Assembly (NCBI GenBank): GCA_964569185.1
Contig: CAZMTP010000002.1
Span: 1,227 to 65,226 of the forward strand
DNA from: an uncultured bacterium
Lineage (GTDB): Bacteria > Chlamydiota > Chlamydiia > Chlamydiales > Rhabdochlamydiaceae
Direction: 5' to 3'
DNA length: 64,000 bases
Positions 470 to 60,083 of this stretch are shown in pieces (positions within the stretch are counted from its first letter, which is position 1; each line of letters opens with the position of its first letter). The position numbers and the translations under genes are program-made. Under the pieces are notes generated by a model. The model was given only the letters and a program-made list of their open reading frames with translations, was not told the DNA's origin and searched no databases.

Positions 470-3052
470 ATGAAGCATGCAATTAAATTTTTTCTTTTTC
501 TCTTCTGCTGTAATTTTCTTTTTGCTGCAGATGATCATCAAAAAACTTTAAAACAGAGACAGCCTCATTGGCGGCCCAGAATTTTAGAAGTGTATCAGCA
601 TGGGCAACCGCAGCGGCTGATGTTCTTTGAGCAATTAAATGACCAGCCAGAAGTTCCTCTTAAACAGATCCAATATTATGAAGATGGCAAAATCTATAAT
701 GAAACAGATCTGATCCTCGTCGATGAATCCTCTGAAGGATTTAAGGTTTGGAATTCAACTACCGTTCCTCATGGACCAAGCATCACCTTTTTCCCTAGTG
801 GGCAGCCTGAGAAAGTTTCTTTTTACAATCGTGGACTATTGGAGGGAGAGGCCAAAGTTTTTTATGAGGGCGGGAAACTTAAAAATAGCGTGCATTTTGA
901 GCAAGGACAGCGTCATGGGCCCTATATTGCCTATTTTCCGGAAGGCACTAAGGCAGAAGAGGCCACTTTTGACAAAGGTAAAATCATTAGAGAGCTGATC
1001 CGCTACTATCCCGATGAAAAACATTCCAGTTTGATCCCCTATGAAAATGGAGTGCCTCATGGCAAAGCGTTTGAGTGGTATGAAAGTGGAGCTTTGAAAA
1101 GTTCCCGCAATTTTTTCCAAGGACTGCTCCACTCAGATGGAAAAAATCCTGCAGTTGTTTTTTATGATGAGCAGCGCAATCTCATAGAAACCCAAGATTT
1201 TCATCAGGGACAGCCGATCAATACTCATTACAAATACTTTCCTGACGGCAAAACAAGCTATTCGATCAGTTATAAAGACGGCAAGAAAGAGGGAATGGAG
1301 CAATTTTTCTCAAAACAGGGCAAGGTCATTGGCGAAGGGAAATATAAAAATGGGCTCAAAGTGGGCAAGCACTGGAGAAATCATGAGAATGGAAAATTGG
1401 CGTTTGCCGCTGAATATGATGATCAAGGCAATCCTTTAAAGCCGACCGAAGAATATAGTGACGAGGGCCAAAAACTGGTCGAGTACACCATCATCAATGA
1501 TGCCAAAGACGGGGCTTATAAAGAGTGGTATCCTAGTGGACAACTCAAAATTGATTTCCATTACAAAAAGGGCGCTTTCGAAGGAGCACAAAGAGAATAT
1601 TTTCCTTCAGGCACTCTAAAAATGCAGACTGCTTATAGCGATGAAGAGAAAGATGGCCTGTATGAAGAATGGTATGAAAATGGAAAACCGGCCATGCATG
1701 TTGGGTTCAAAAAAGGAAAAAAAGAGGGCCCTGCGCTGAACTATTATGAAAATGGAGTGCTTCGCGTCAAAGAATCCTATGCTAATGACCTGATTCATGA
1801 TGATAAGGAAGATCGCTTTGAAAATGGTCTGGTGAAATTTAAAGGAAAATTCAAAGAGGGCAAAAAAGAAGACTGGCATCGCGAATATAATGATAAGGGA
1901 CAGCTGCTCACCGAAGTTTTCTATGTAGAAGATTTGCCAGAGGGATTAGCGCGCCTTTTCCATGATAATGGCCAAGTCAAGGAGACGATCCAATTTTCCA
2001 AAGGAAAAAGAGAAGGAAAGAGTGAAGAATTTTATCCCAGTGGAAAATCGCGGCTAACCGCTTTTTATAAAGATGACAAAGTGGAAGGCAAAGTGCAAGC
2101 TTGGTATGAAGATGGCACAGTCAGTTTTGTAAAAAATTATAAAGAGGGCCGTCCTTGCGGCGAGCACAAAGAGTATTATCCGATCAATCCAGGGACTACA
2201 CAACAAATTGCACGTGCTTTTATTTTCAACGAGCAAGGAGTATTAGAGGGAGAACAAAAAACCTATTTCCCTTCTGGCCAGCTCCAAACATTGATCCAAT
2301 ATAAAAATGGAATACTTCACGGCAAGAAAATGTTATTAGATGAAAAGGGCGATCCTTTGGAAGACGGTTTTTATAATAATGGGAAATTGAATGGTCGCTT
2401 TTTTGAAAAGACCAAGGATGGAAAAGAGATTGTCTTCCATTACAAAGATGATCTGCGCGAGGGGTTGCATGAGATGTACTATGCCCCGCACCAGTTTTTT
2501 GGCAAAGTAAAGGCTGTCGAAGTGCCATTTAAAAATAATGAAGCGGAAGGCGAAGCGACAGAATACAATGAAGCGGGCGCCAAAGTGAGTAGCACTTTCT
2601 TCCATAAAGGAAAAAAAGAGGGCACCTCCAAACTTTATAATGCTAATGGCACTCTTTTTATGACGCTGGAGTTTAAAAGCGATCAAAGAGAAGGTCCTGC
2701 AGTCCAATATTTCCCTAATGGCAAAGTGTTCAAAGAGGTCAACTTTATCAACGATCAAAAAGAGGGAGAAGAAAAGACCTACTTTGATAATGGAAAGTTG
2801 GCAGCAAAAAGTTTCTACAAAAATGGAAAGCAGCATGGGCTATATCAAGAGTGGAATGCACAAGGGATATTAGTCTTTGAAGGCGAATATAAAGAGGGGT
2901 TGCGCCACGGCAAATTTAATAAATACTACGATGATGGGCGGCCCAAACTTTTGCAGGCTTATTTTGACGATCAGCTTCATGGCACCAAGAAGTCCTACGA
3001 TGCCAAAGGCACTCTCACCGAAACCCACTACAACATGGGCAAGAAAGTTTAG
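470..3052 (+). CDS. Secreted MORN-repeat (YwqK-type) protein, 860 aa
   Basis: N-terminal signal peptide (FLFLFCCNFLFAADD). The rest is almost entirely ~23-aa repeats of the form G-x-x-x-G-x-x-x-x-(Y/F)-(Y/F)-x-x-G-(K/Q). Confidence 0.85.
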   Translation: MKHAIKFFLFLFCCNFLFAADDHQKTLKQRQPHWRPRILEVYQHGQPQRLMFFEQLNDQPEVPLKQIQYYEDGKIYNETDLILVDESSEGFKVWNSTTVPHGPSITFFPSGQPEKVSFYNRGLLEGEAKVFYEGGKLKNSVHFEQGQRHGPYIAYFPEGTKAEEATFDKGKIIRELIRYYPDEKHSSLIPYENGVPHGKAFEWYESGALKSSRNFFQGLLHSDGKNPAVVFYDEQRNLIETQDFHQGQPINTHYKYFPDGKTSYSISYKDGKKEGMEQFFSKQGKVIGEGKYKNGLKVGKHWRNHENGKLAFAAEYDDQGNPLKPTEEYSDEGQKLVEYTIINDAKDGAYKEWYPSGQLKIDFHYKKGAFEGAQREYFPSGTLKMQTAYSDEEKDGLYEEWYENGKPAMHVGFKKGKKEGPALNYYENGVLRVKESYANDLIHDDKEDRFENGLVKFKGKFKEGKKEDWHREYNDKGQLLTEVFYVEDLPEGLARLFHDNGQVKETIQFSKGKREGKSEEFYPSGKSRLTAFYKDDKVEGKVQAWYEDGTVSFVKNYKEGRPCGEHKEYYPINPGTTQQIARAFIFNEQGVLEGEQKTYFPSGQLQTLIQYKNGILHGKKMLLDEKGDPLEDGFYNNGKLNGRFFEKTKDGKEIVFHYKDDLREGLHEMYYAPHQFFGKVKAVEVPFKNNEAEGEATEYNEAGAKVSSTFFHKGKKEGTSKLYNANGTLFMTLEFKSDQREGPAVQYFPNGKVFKEVNFINDQKEGEEKTYFDNGKLAAKSFYKNGKQHGLYQEWNAQGILVFEGEYKEGLRHGKFNKYYDDGRPKLLQAYFDDQLHGTKKSYDAKGTLTETHYNMGKKV

Positions 3053-3079
3053 GGAAAGATTTAAGGGAAGAAGATTAAG

Positions 3080-3582
3080 AAAAAGGCGGAATAGACAGTC
3101 GGGGCACGTGACGTGCCCCCGCTGCCCTAAGGGAGATTCTTGCTGCGCCAAATTGTTCCTCCGTCATGGGTCCGTACATAGAGGTACTTGCAAAAGTCCA
3201 GTTTGGGCTAAAACGCGCCCTTTTTCCACAGATTTTGATTCTACGCAAATCGCCTACACTCTCTGGTGTATGTCAATTTGCGTAGAATCAAAATCTGGGA
3301 AAAAACCATCGCGTTTTATCTCCAAAGCGACTTTTGCAAGTACCTCATAGTACTGTCCCCATTCCTTCGGCTCAATTTTGCTTTGCCATAATCGCCATTG
3401 GCTGCTCATGCGCTCACTTCCCACTCCTTCTAGTCGTGGGTCCCTTTTCGCGTCAATTCGCAGAACCAACTGGAAATCCAAAGCTAGGATTTTAACGTGC
3501 CCGTGAGCTTGCCCGTGCCCGAAAAATGGGCAGCGGGGGCAACGCAGTATGCCCCGACTGTCTTGTCTATTCTGCCTTTTTT
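3080..3582. repeat. Composite inverted-repeat element: ~48-nt imperfect arms flanking ~400 bp
   Basis: Left arm 3080-3127 (AAAAAGGCGGAATAGACAGTCGGGGCAC...) is the reverse complement of right arm 3528-3582 (...TGCCCCGACTGTCttgTCTATTCTGCCTTTTTT). The same arms occur directly juxtaposed at 46025-46087. Confidence 0.7.
3174..3353. repeat. ~180-nt imperfect palindrome nested inside the 3080-3582 element
   Basis: Perfect 22-bp stem 3229-3250/3276-3297 (CAGATTTTGATTCTACGCAAAT). Perfect 18-bp stem 3181-3198/3329-3346 (GAGGTACTTGCAAAAGTC). Shorter paired blocks lie between them. Confidence 0.8.
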
Positions 3583-3653
3583 CTTTTATTTCCCTGTATT
3601 AAACCTGGGTTTTTTTTGGTGAAATAATTTTGTGGACATGGCTTAATGAGTGC

Positions 3654-4376
3654 ATGCACAGAAAAAGAATTTTACTCATCGAAGATGAGGAGGATATCGC
3701 TTCTCTCATCAAACTTCAGGCCGAGGCACTTGGCTATAAGCTGCATGTTGAAGTAGATGGGGTGAACGGGTTCCACGCTGTCGAGCGGGAGAAGCCTGAT
3801 CTTGTGATCCTAGATCTGATGCTTCCAGGACAAAATGGACTGGATGTATGCAGAAAAATCAAAAGCCATCCCGACCTGCGTAATATTCCTGTAGTTATTC
3901 TTACTGCAAAATCTGAAGAGATCGATATTGTCCTCGGACTGGAGCTCGGCGCCGATGATTATGTTGCTAAACCCTTTTCGCCTAAAGTGCTCTTCTCTCG
4001 TATCAAAGCGGTCTTGCGTCGCACAAAAGAGCCCGATAAAGCACCCAAACCATTGAAATTTGGCGAGTTCACTTTGGATGTGGACCGCTATCTATTAAAG
4101 AAAGGCGATTATATTGTTCCGATTACGCTTTCAGAGTTTGGAATTTTGCGACGGCTTATTGCTAATCGCGGCAAAGTCTTAACGCGCAACCAGCTTCTCG
4201 ACGATATCCAAAATGAAGATGCCTTTATCGTAGATAGAAATATCGATGTTCATATTGCATCACTAAGAAAAAAATTAGGACCCAGTTTCATCTGGATTGA
4301 GACAGTACGAGGAATCGGTTATAGATTTAAAGATGAGATGCCTTCCTCAAAAAAGAGTAAAGAAAAACTTACATGA
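3654..4376 (+). CDS. OmpR/PhoB-family response regulator (receiver + winged-helix)
   Basis: Receiver motifs ILLIEDEE, DLVILDLMLPG and ILTAK. C-terminal winged helix ...TVRGIGYRF. ATG at 3654 preferred over the TTG at 3630. Confidence 0.9.
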   Translation: MHRKRILLIEDEEDIASLIKLQAEALGYKLHVEVDGVNGFHAVEREKPDLVILDLMLPGQNGLDVCRKIKSHPDLRNIPVVILTAKSEEIDIVLGLELGADDYVAKPFSPKVLFSRIKAVLRRTKEPDKAPKPLKFGEFTLDVDRYLLKKGDYIVPITLSEFGILRRLIANRGKVLTRNQLLDDIQNEDAFIVDRNIDVHIASLRKKLGPSFIWIETVRGIGYRFKDEMPSSKKSKEKLT

Positions 4377-45980: not shown

Positions 45981-46024
45981 AGAAAATCGTGTTTGTTCCA
46001 AACACGATTTGATTTCTAAAATAG

Positions 46025-46087
46025 AAAAAGGCGCAATAGACAGTCGGGGCACAATTATGTGCCCCGACTGTCTATATCCGCCTTTTT
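46025..46087. terminator. Long perfect hairpin with A-run/T-run flanks, a bidirectional terminator candidate
   Basis: AAAAAGGCG-c-AATAGACAGTCGGGGCAC-aattat-GTGCCCCGACTGTCTAT-at-CCGCCTTTTT, between the convergent permease and histidine kinase genes. Confidence 0.7.
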
Positions 46088-51940: not shown

Positions 51941-52958
51941 AATCATTGGCCTTTCAAAACGCTATTATCGTAAAAAACAGACCGATGTGCATGCATTGCG
52001 TCATCTGAATTTAACGGTAGAAAAAGGAGATATTTTTGGCATCATTGGTCAAAGTGGTGCAGGAAAATCTACTTTAATCCGCTGTTTGGCACGCCTTGAA
52101 AAACCCTCCTTTGGGGAAATTTTGATCCACGGACAAAATATCTGCCTCTTAGAAGGGAATGAATTAAGAAAATATTACAAAAGTATTGGAATGATTTTTC
52201 AACATTTCAATTTACTCAGCAGCCGTACCGCAGCAGAAAATATTGCCTATCCTCTTGAAATTAGCGGAGTCGATTTTGATCAGCGAAGAAAACGTGTACA
52301 GGAACTGATCGCTTTAGTGGGATTAGAAGAACAAAAAGAGCAGTATCCCGCGCAACTCAGTGGCGGGCAAAAACAGCGGGTGGGCATCGCAAGAGCGCTG
52401 GCTGCCGATCCTGAAATTCTTTTTTGCGATGAGGCGACCTCCTCTTTAGACCCTAAAACAACCAAAGAAATTCTAACCCTTCTAAAAAAAGTTCAACTGA
52501 AATTAGGTTTGACTATCGTTTTAATCACGCATCAAATGGAAGTGATTAAACAGATCTGCAATAAAGTGGCTGTTCTAGAGAGAGGGGAGGTAAAAGAGGC
52601 GGGAACATTGGCCCAAATTTTTGTCCATCCAACCCATTCCACAACAAAAAGTTTTGTCCAAAATACGCTGCATGAGATTCCGAGCCATTTCTTTAAAGAT
52701 ATTGCTCCTAACAAACGGCTCCTCCATTTGCATTTCAAAGGAGAAAAAGCAGACCTGCCTATCATTTCACAGCTTGTGAGAAAGTTTAATGTGGATGCCA
52801 ATATTTTATTGGGATGGATCGACTCTTTGCAAACAGTCACAGTCGGTAACCTGATCATCCAGCTCTCTGGAGAACCTGCCCATATTGAGCAGGCGCTTGC
52901 TTACATTAAAAAGTTAGAAATAGAATATGAGGTCTTTGAACCTATCCAAGTAAAATGA
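51924..52958 (+). CDS. metN: Methionine ABC transporter ATP-binding protein
   Basis: Walker A GQSGAGKST, signature LSGGQKQR, Walker B ILFCDEATS, and a C-terminal NIL domain. Confidence 0.9.
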   Translation: MAPLIEIIGLSKRYYRKKQTDVHALRHLNLTVEKGDIFGIIGQSGAGKSTLIRCLARLEKPSFGEILIHGQNICLLEGNELRKYYKSIGMIFQHFNLLSSRTAAENIAYPLEISGVDFDQRRKRVQELIALVGLEEQKEQYPAQLSGGQKQRVGIARALAADPEILFCDEATSSLDPKTTKEILTLLKKVQLKLGLTIVLITHQMEVIKQICNKVAVLERGEVKEAGTLAQIFVHPTHSTTKSFVQNTLHEIPSHFFKDIAPNKRLLHLHFKGEKADLPIISQLVRKFNVDANILLGWIDSLQTVTVGNLIIQLSGEPAHIEQALAYIKKLEIEYEVFEPIQVK

Positions 52959-52989
52959 AAAACATGCTTTTTGAATCTTTTTCCATGCC

Positions 52990-53047
52990 TTTTAGAACTG
53001 CTTCTTGCCCTACTTGCTCAAGTATGTGCTGCGAAGCAGTTCTAAAA
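52990..53047. promoter_or_regulatory. Intercistronic stem-loop (15-bp perfect stem, 28-nt loop) between metN and metI
   Basis: TTTTAGAACTGCTTC (52990-53004) pairs with GAAGCAGTTCTAAAA (53033-53047). No T-run directly follows. Confidence 0.5.
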
Positions 53048-53100
53048 CTCCTGAAAAAATTTTTCAAAAATCAACGTTTTATTTTACCTGGATAGGTTCT

Positions 53101-53772
53101 ATGACAAGTGATCTTTTTTCTCTTCTACTTTTCTCTCTAGGCGAAACTCTTTATATGGTTTTTGCTTCTATTTTTTTTGCAACGCTCATTGGGATGCCCT
53201 TAGGAATCCTCCTTTTTTTGACAAAGAAAGGGCATCTAAAAGAACGGCCTATGCTGCATAAAATTCTAGGAGCGGTGGTAAATCTTGGGCGTTCTTTTCC
53301 TTTTGCTATTTTGATGGTGGCACTGATTCCTGTGACACGTTGGATTATTGGAACAAGTTTGGGAACTACAGCTTCCATTGTCCCTCTTTCATTTGCGGCA
53401 GCTCCTTTTATTGCACGCCAGGTAGAGAATTGTTTAAATGAAATTGGCAGGGAAATACTCGAAGCCGCTATTGTGATGGGATCGTCAATAGGGCAAATCA
53501 TTTATAAAGTATTGCTAGCCGAAGCACTACCCTCGCTTATCCAGGCACTTACCTTGACAATCATTAATTTAATCGGATATAGCGCCATGGCAGGGCTTGT
53601 TGGTGGGGGCGGACTGGGCACTGTTGCGATTCAATATGGTTACCAGAGATTTAATGGCTCTGTGATGTTTTGGACGGTAATTCTTTTGATCCTGCTCGTC
53701 GAAATCATTCAAACGATAGGGAGCCGTTTAGCAGCACGGTTACGTAAAAAAAGAGGACAAGCCCATGAATAA
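53101..53772 (+). CDS. metI: Methionine ABC transporter permease
   Basis: Start at MTSDLFSLLL. Five TM helices and the EAA-type loop (ILEAAIVMGSSIGQIIYKVLLAEALP). Confidence 0.9.
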   Translation: MTSDLFSLLLFSLGETLYMVFASIFFATLIGMPLGILLFLTKKGHLKERPMLHKILGAVVNLGRSFPFAILMVALIPVTRWIIGTSLGTTASIVPLSFAAAPFIARQVENCLNEIGREILEAAIVMGSSIGQIIYKVLLAEALPSLIQALTLTIINLIGYSAMAGLVGGGGLGTVAIQYGYQRFNGSVMFWTVILLILLVEIIQTIGSRLAARLRKKRGQAHE

Positions 53773-59921: not shown

Positions 59922-60083
59922 TTAACGTGCCATGCCCTTGCCCGAAGGTATTTAAATATCCTGCTTATCCTGCTGCTTTAGCGATCCTCTTATCCTGTTT
60001 TCTTAAATGCCCTTTAGGGCCTTGTAGAGAAAGGCAAAAAATGCAATAAAAAAAATTTAAAGCATAATGATGGCTCTGCAGGA

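Follow-up and report, generated by a model that had tools for sequence, protein, structure and literature searches.

Why two genes in an environmental chlamydial genome are held apart by about 600 bp of densely palindromic DNA, and what that DNA is, are the questions raised by this locus. The genome under study (G000; 1.55 Mb, 90 contigs, 92.5% complete) was analyzed through a window, the whole 64,000-nt stretch of DNA under analysis (G000:C2:1227-65226), whose coordinates we use unless a contig is named. The spacer separates a gene for a MORN-repeat protein (860 amino acids; 470-3052, plus strand) from a response-regulator gene, which most likely starts at ATG 3654 and not at TTG 3630 opening the ORF, because exactly that 240-amino-acid product is recorded in another assembly. 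A start at 3654 also aligns with that in G034, a same-genus relative (sister species) available as MAG "Rhabdochlamydiaceae bacterium SMAG_U15694". The closest named relative is labeled Rhabdochlamydiaceae, and the naming of Parachlamydiaceae as kin in the original prediction was probably off. Our analyses support, with a probability of about 0.8, that the block at 3078-3588 consists of palindromic repeat elements without genes, nested in one another and acquired in the G000 lineage, and is neither a single element nor an RNA gene. Gene-less palindromic repeats are a frequent type of selfish DNA and are apparently undescribed in chlamydiae; a literature search for publications on MITEs or REPs in Chlamydiae found none.

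The structured nature of the block is pronounced, as 3075-3590 folds as single-stranded DNA at -137 kcal/mol versus -62 ± 4 kcal/mol in shuffles (z = -17.6). An inverted-repeat search verified that the block is enclosed by complementary arms, which pair in three segments (3080-3097 with 3564-3581, 18 nt, 94%; 3093-3106 with 3550-3563, 14 nt, 100%; and 3114-3127 with 3528-3541, 14 nt, 100%), and detected an inner palindrome (3168-3217 with 3310-3359, 78%; 3221-3250 with 3276-3305, 93%). In BLAST searches against the whole genome, each position of 3070-3590 was overlapped by 4 to 27 other genomic matches, both strands summed, and the sets of copies differed between parts of the spacer, indicating that the block is a mosaic. 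Both filled and empty sites occur. The expectation that the spacer consists of small non-autonomous mobile or repeat elements was therefore borne out, with dispersed repeats found throughout. Coding potential was considered and rejected, since other copies and other genera do not preserve the 37-codon frame that runs on the minus strand of the window copy.

Read along the plus strand, the block begins with an outer arm O (AAAAAGGCGGAATAGACAGTC; left copy, 3080-3100) that pairs with 3556-3582, a mini-hairpin H (GGGGCACGT-g-ACGTGCCCC; 3101-3119), and an inner box I (CGCTGCCC; 3120-3127) that pairs with 3528-3535. These are followed by the left half of a module that we call P1 (3128-3177), an imperfect palindrome of ~100 nt with the center GTAC-NNN-GTAC, whose right half lies at 3350-3396. 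Between the P1 halves, a 166-bp MITE (3181-3346) lies on the minus strand, which we define as the strand bearing a G.U-compatible hairpin, and is bordered by the left and right copies of an ATA target-site duplication (3178-3180 and 3347-3349). To the right of P1, module X (GGCTGCTCATGCGCTCACTTCCC, a variable hairpin, and TCCCTTTTCGCGTCAATTCGCAGAACC; 3400-3467) contains blocks conserved across genera. Module M7, a small central hairpin (GGAAATCC-aaagcta-GGATTTT; 3468-3493), marks the junction of a long left half and a short right half, and module M8 (3494-3527) consists of successive GTGCCC-type hexamers and then GAAAAAT. The block closes with an inner box I' (GGGCAGCG; 3528-3535), a mini-hairpin H' (GGGGCA-acgcagta-TGCCCC; 3536-3555), and an outer arm O' with a T-run (GACTGTCTTGTCTATTCTGCCTTTTTT; 3556-3582). 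The mini-hairpins proposed for both sides are thus real. A further proposal, that 3355-3527 is an asymmetric segment lacking a partner, did not hold, as at least 15 homologous copies occur elsewhere in the genome and a mirrored partner is present in other copies.

For the innermost unit, a 180-nt palindrome had been placed at 3174-3353; the palindrome exists, but its true unit is 3181-3346, which has perfect 18-bp terminal inverted repeats (GAGGTACTTGCAAAAGTC) at 3181-3198 and 3329-3346 and ATA on both flanks. We found seven full copies of this MITE in the genome, on contigs C2 (the window copy), C17, C3, C10, C36, C11, and C8, that are 92 to 100% identical except for a deleted 146-bp copy on C8 (77%), along with four solo-end remnants. 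Perfect 18-bp ends (GAGGTACTTGCAAAAGTC and GACTTTTGCAAGTACCTC) are retained in six of the seven copies, and 3-bp direct repeats that vary between copies flank all of them (ATA, ATA, GCA, GCT, TCT, TT(T)A, and AAA). Host copies on C33, C56, and C80 that carry no MITE show the empty sites GTAC-ATA-GTAC and GTAC-AGC-GTAC, with that on C33 reading GTACATAGTAC. Four MITE copies occupy the same P1-type center in four different host elements, where the MITEs are 99.4 to 100% identical and the surrounding 120 nt only 68 to 92% identical, and the MITE on C10 is inverted relative to its host element. Near-identical MITEs in divergent flanks, together with the inverted C10 copy, indicate independent and recent insertions into a hot spot. 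Hence, an element targeting a hairpin was correctly anticipated, but the element is the 166-bp MITE entering a GTAC-NNN-GTAC palindrome center and not the ~400-bp insert that had been proposed.

The MITE extends well beyond this genome. Full-length homologs (164 to 167 bp, ~74% identical) were detected in 18 of the 101 sampled genomes and in 10 of 40 genera of the family, with target duplications of 3 to 4 bp in relatives, and motifs resembling the MITE end number more than 130 in some genomes. Exact-pattern scans for the MITE end in genome and metagenome contigs gave no matches. As a separate observation, the G.U-compatible strand is antisense to co-directional flanking genes for the MITEs on C2, C17, C10, C36, and C11 (5 of 5). 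A general rule of MITE orientation relative to flanking genes was rejected, as the strand was antisense in only 3 of 6 cases in relatives.

We propose that the MITE forms the innermost and youngest layer of the stack and would have been cut and pasted into the GTAC|ATA|GTAC center of an older palindrome, duplicating ATA in the process. The enzyme responsible would be a DDE transposase acting in trans, most likely that of an IS5-type insertion sequence absent from the assembly. Assignment of the MITE to an IS5-type transposase is tentative and is based on the similarity of the ends and the length of the duplication. A search of G000, an assembly 92.5% complete, detected no DUF4096/IS5-type transposase; insertion sequences are commonly missing from assemblies. 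In one relative (G048), we observed an IS5-family transposase gene (DUF4096 plus DDE_Tnp_1/DDE_Tnp_1_2, frameshifted) 110 nt from a GAGGGAATTACAAAC end, in an insertion sequence that is degenerate and has a blurred right end. Five further relatives contained no intact insertion sequence with MITE-type ends. Two other candidates were discarded. A DDE transposase fragment, located where contig C70 ends, has ends unrelated to those of the MITE, and mobilization by RAYT or IS200 was rejected since no Y1/HUH transposase (RAYT, PF01797) was matched in G000. The Y1 gene of the same-genus relative G034 is accompanied by an IS200-type hairpin but by no arm motif, and is unrelated to the arms. As a whole, the G000 assembly yielded no transposase for either layer and no enzyme candidate for the arm-bearing elements, for which neither a target duplication nor a sharp outer boundary could be defined.

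The MITE appears to be constrained along its whole length. When 11 copies from about nine genomes were aligned, they supported a 70-pair hairpin, in which 94.9% of the cells are paired versus 83.7% in shuffles. Compensatory changes were found in 32 pairs versus 17.7 ± 2.4 in shuffles, a level reached by 0 of 500 shuffles, and slid controls gave at most 11. On the strand that is minus in the window, G.T outnumbered A.C on hairpin pairs 43 to 7, a ratio that the shared ancestry of the copies could inflate. This excess hints at a constraint acting on one single strand, as either RNA or single-stranded DNA. Compensatory change combined with a G.T excess is not predicted by simple cut-and-paste movement of a junk element and counts against the explanation that we favor. 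The corresponding G.U-versus-A.C test on P1 found mismatches that are mostly transversions.

The second layer, into which the MITE would have inserted, is a modular hairpin element that consists of P1, X, M7, and M8 with the 48-nt arms as its outer ends. Without the MITE, the element reads O-H-I, P1 (~100 nt), X, M7, M8, and I'-H'-O'. About 30 arms of 48 nt occur in the genome, each running from an outer stem O through a variable mini-hairpin H to the box CGCTGCCC, and the O core (AGACAGTCGGG) likewise occurs about 30 times beside GGCG/A-run sequence. The outer side lies 20 to 70 nt from the 3' end of a gene in approximately 19 of 26 arms, so that members of this family appear to settle just past gene ends. 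The H stems are highly diverse: the 28 arms contain at least 10 different ones, all of which have 5 to 9 Watson-Crick pairs and no G.T pair. The family takes three forms: one-armed half-elements (O-H-I-P1-X; about a dozen in the genome, each ~230 to 260 nt), inverted pairs of halves forming giant palindromes, and a minimal 63-nt form represented by the hairpin at 46025-46087. On C33 and C3, pairs of head-to-head halves form palindromes of 480 to 660 nt. Halves joined in one element can belong to different subtypes, and the window copy joins a long half to a short half (M8-I'-H'-O') that is also found after several other genes, where M8 likewise precedes an arm.

The architecture also occurs outside this genome. 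An exact O-H-I pattern matched 23 stretches, which come from at least 10 chlamydial MAGs, and the O-H-I-P1-X architecture in at least 10 MAGs, including one near-perfect palindrome of 825 nt. P1 homologs and the O-H-I-P1-X architecture also occur in other genera, and full-length homologs of the element are mostly limited to the genus (G034 and G056); the full-length copy in G034 shows 72% identity and occupies a non-orthologous site. RNAalifold was unusable on a sequence-only alignment of half-elements, in which the hairpins vary in length. A possible gene cassette between two arms on C4 was rejected, since the arms there are independent of each other and the 82-amino-acid gene is an ordinary conserved one that 11 of 40 genera possess. 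A segment of 100 N beside an arm-bearing element (G000:C1:68822-68921) lies inside a duplicated segment and may be a scaffold gap or bases that were withheld.

Taken further, these observations allow a bolder reading, which we consider improbable. The arm-bearing half-element (O-H-I, P1, X) would be a structure-conserved module of ~230 to 260 nt, widespread in environmental chlamydiae and spreading by its own hairpin-directed mechanism, and selection would act on the MITE hairpin in one specific single strand, such as a long hairpin RNA that RNase III processes or a transposition intermediate of single-stranded DNA. The MITE would then be more than junk, and the two kinds of element would jointly form a novel class of mobile DNA in Chlamydiae that builds hairpins and makes and reshapes transcription terminators.

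That the stack was gained rather than inherited is supported by comparison with relatives. In the sister species G034, a spacer of ~35 bp, which contains no hairpin, separates the neighboring genes for the MORN protein and the regulator (92% protein identity), and six relatives (from five other genera of the family and one other family) likewise have short spacers before the regulator. These short spacers indicate that the block was gained in the G000 lineage, with the consequence that genes ~35 bp apart in the sister species are now ~600 bp apart. Three further loci have orthologous spacers in G034 or G056 that are occupied by different palindromic elements, suggesting that gene-end spacers are colonized independently and turn over fast. 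Separately, we noted at G034:C28:23750-23910 and G034:C28:74950-75065 a different palindromic element (with AACCACAGAGACACGGAG... ends) where G000 has arm-bearing elements.

The same comparison bears on the idea that the block is a structured RNA gene or a cis-regulatory leader of the response-regulator operon, with the nested stems as the secondary structure of a functional transcript. The block is missing before this regulator in G034 and the six relatives, and all of its parts occur in multiple copies at non-orthologous sites, which makes this reading very unlikely. Several properties would fit it, including the compensatory changes that keep the hairpins, the one-stranded G.T excess of the MITE hairpin, the conservation of sequence blocks across genera, and the folding of half-elements as RNA, which is better by 10 to 25 kcal/mol on one strand. 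However, a search of Rfam 15 returned only sub-threshold matches to miRNA-type long hairpins for the window copy and none for a MITE-less copy, so that the RNA alternative raised in the original prediction gained no support from either Rfam or a conserved position. We also looked for a promoter-like site and found none. The G.U-rich strand of the MITE is here antisense to both flanking genes, and mini-hairpins free of any G.T pair are more typical of DNA palindromes.

Having favored a stack of mobile repeats over an RNA gene, we considered how its outer arms arose. The original prediction held that the two arms recur abutted as a compact hairpin at 46025-46087 and that the locus after the MORN gene looks like such a hairpin split open by an insert. 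The compact hairpin exists as a family member of the form O-H-O' between convergent genes; it contains the outer 21 nt of each arm and one mini-hairpin but lacks the inner CGCTGCCC/GGGCAGCG part. In its hairpin-first version, this model posits that a terminator-like O-H-O' hairpin was already present after the MORN gene and that an element bounded by CGCTGCCC and GGGCAGCG inserted site specifically at the base of its tip, bringing or duplicating the second mini-hairpin. The presence of the compact form at 46025 and on C12, C13, and C29 lends this model some plausibility, as do the facts that arms face gene 3' ends as terminators do and that the innermost MITE demonstrates insertion into palindrome centers in this genome. 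In addition, the mini-hairpin at 46025 is identical to that of the arm on C80, which indicates that one form gives rise to the other. H is palindromic, so that H and H' are at the same time direct repeats, and a deletion between them would convert a full element to the compact form, with an insertion accomplishing the reverse.

Nonetheless, we regard a preexisting hairpin as doubtful and prefer, at about 2:1, that the arms are the element's own ends. The empty site of the sister species contains no hairpin, and compact hairpins themselves are not conserved at orthologous sites; spacers of G056 and G034 orthologous to the 46025 site hold different palindromes. In the cleanest full-length copies (G034 and C33), H and H' are inverted copies, loops included, and not direct duplicates, which fits terminal inverted repeats. 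Single-armed half-elements are common, some full elements combine arms of two subtypes, and the H stems vary yet covary with their own arm and match the adjacent box, whereas a fixed insert would need ends that covary with each target. A search for an O|O' junction without H found none.

The relationship of these hairpins to transcription termination was judged by their anatomy. For the compact hairpin at 46025-46087, the predicted folding energies are -46.8 kcal/mol for the plus strand and -48.9 kcal/mol for the minus strand (z of about -12 to -13), with 27 predicted pairs, an A-run, a GC-rich stem, and a U-run after the stem on both strands. It therefore looks like a putative two-way intrinsic terminator. 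A GC-rich stem directly followed by a U-run is present in the compact hairpin on both strands and in the right arm of the block, but not in the left arm. Together with 3521-3535, O' folds by itself into a hairpin of the A-run/stem/U-run type (-26 kcal/mol), and the spacer ends in a terminator-like hairpin ~70 nt before the regulator ATG at 3654. A simple terminator scanner called none over the compact hairpin and arms. As a side observation, a separate terminator-like hairpin (AAATCGTGTTTG-ttc-CAAACACGATTT; 45984-46010) lies 15 nt before the compact O-H-O' form, and this convergent junction thus carries two hairpins.

Because repeats can mislead assembly, we also considered whether a chimeric join created the nested arrangement, which would then not be real in the cell. 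Such a join does appear in a public assembly: in contig DATIIN010000147.1 of GCA_035479635.1 (positions 1-2368), the left flank of the C10 copy is joined to the right flank of the window copy through the identical MITE, with the left part 100% identical to G000:C10 and the right part 100% identical to G000:C2. The flanks of that contig mismatch, the left one reading GCT and the right one ATA, and we consider it likely, from these sequence features, that the contig is the chimera and that identical MITE copies have already misled genome assembly there. In the window, the MITE flanks share the ATA duplication and are two matching halves of one P1 palindrome, and the outer arms pair across the whole block, so that an artifact is extremely improbable here. 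A search for a strain-level empty site by means of the identical regulator protein returned only the chimeric contig.

Placed among known systems, the innermost element resembles bacterial MITEs that are mobilized in trans by DDE transposases, such as Correia/NEMIS in Neisseria, RUP in Streptococcus pneumoniae (IS630-Spn1), and IS5-family or Tourist-like elements with 3-bp duplications. It shares with them a length of 100 to 200 bp, the lack of an ORF, terminal inverted repeats, short target duplications, multiple near-identical intergenic copies, empty sites, and the potential for long hairpins that may affect transcripts. In contrast to them, the chlamydial MITE resides in a genome without a cognate insertion sequence, the whole 166 bp and not the ends alone form a hairpin kept by compensatory change across genera, and a strong hot spot lies at the center of another palindromic repeat (GTAC-NNN-GTAC). 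Repeated landing of a transposable element in the center of a dispersed palindromic repeat recalls IS1397 and ISKpn1, insertion sequences that enter the loops of REP palindromic units; here, however, the invader is a gene-less MITE and the target is the center of a 100-nt module.

The arm-bearing family is closest to the REP, BIME, and REPIN sequences, of which REP and REPIN are mobilized by RAYT. Both are short, GC-rich, imperfect palindromes found just past gene ends, with stems that vary but remain paired and resemble terminators, and both occur as singlets, inverted pairs, and mosaics with other motifs; this genome shows single arms, inverted pairs, and the compact form. The proteobacterial REP and REPIN sequences fall into GTAG and CGTC classes (PMC3733652). 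The arms described here instead read ATAGACAGTCGGG..., without a GTAG or CGTC tag, and the genome has no RAYT/Y1 gene. The units are also larger (half-elements of ~230 to 260 nt and pairs of 480 to 825 nt), and the host belongs to the Chlamydiae. Intrinsic bidirectional terminators provide a further parallel, sharing the A-run, GC-rich stem, and U-run on both strands in the compact form and the placement of arms 20 to 70 nt past stop codons, but the sequence here is a dispersed repeat rather than locus specific, and the left arm of the split form lacks a U-run.

Chlamydiae are usually regarded as poor in mobile DNA. Against this background, a small genome carries at least five families of palindromic mini-elements that turn over fast at gene ends between sister species. 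The stack in the window puts terminator-like hairpins before a response-regulator operon and may have rewired its transcription. Two traits are less ordinary: a hot spot lies at a palindrome center, and compensatory change maintains a hairpin whose wobble bias is strand specific. The former offers a clean natural example of target-site choice in the repeated landing of a MITE in the center of another repeat, and the latter a case in which structure-dependent constraint on mobile DNA can be tested.

Other palindromic families in the genome number about 50 and about 40 copies, and both were observed in the window. A partial copy of a ~110- to 140-bp family (ATCCTGCTTATCCTGCCGCTTTAGCGATCC... and its inverse), present at ~50 genomic loci, lies at 59946-60006, and the ATCCTGCTTATCCTGCCGCTTTAGCGATCC motif also adjoins the element on C80. 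A copy of a ~180-bp family with ends TGAACCTATCC...GGATAGGTTCA, found at ~40 loci by self-BLAST, lies at 52927-53112. The inverted-repeat element at 22028-22203 had no second copy in the genome by BLAST and hence does not represent a dispersed family here.
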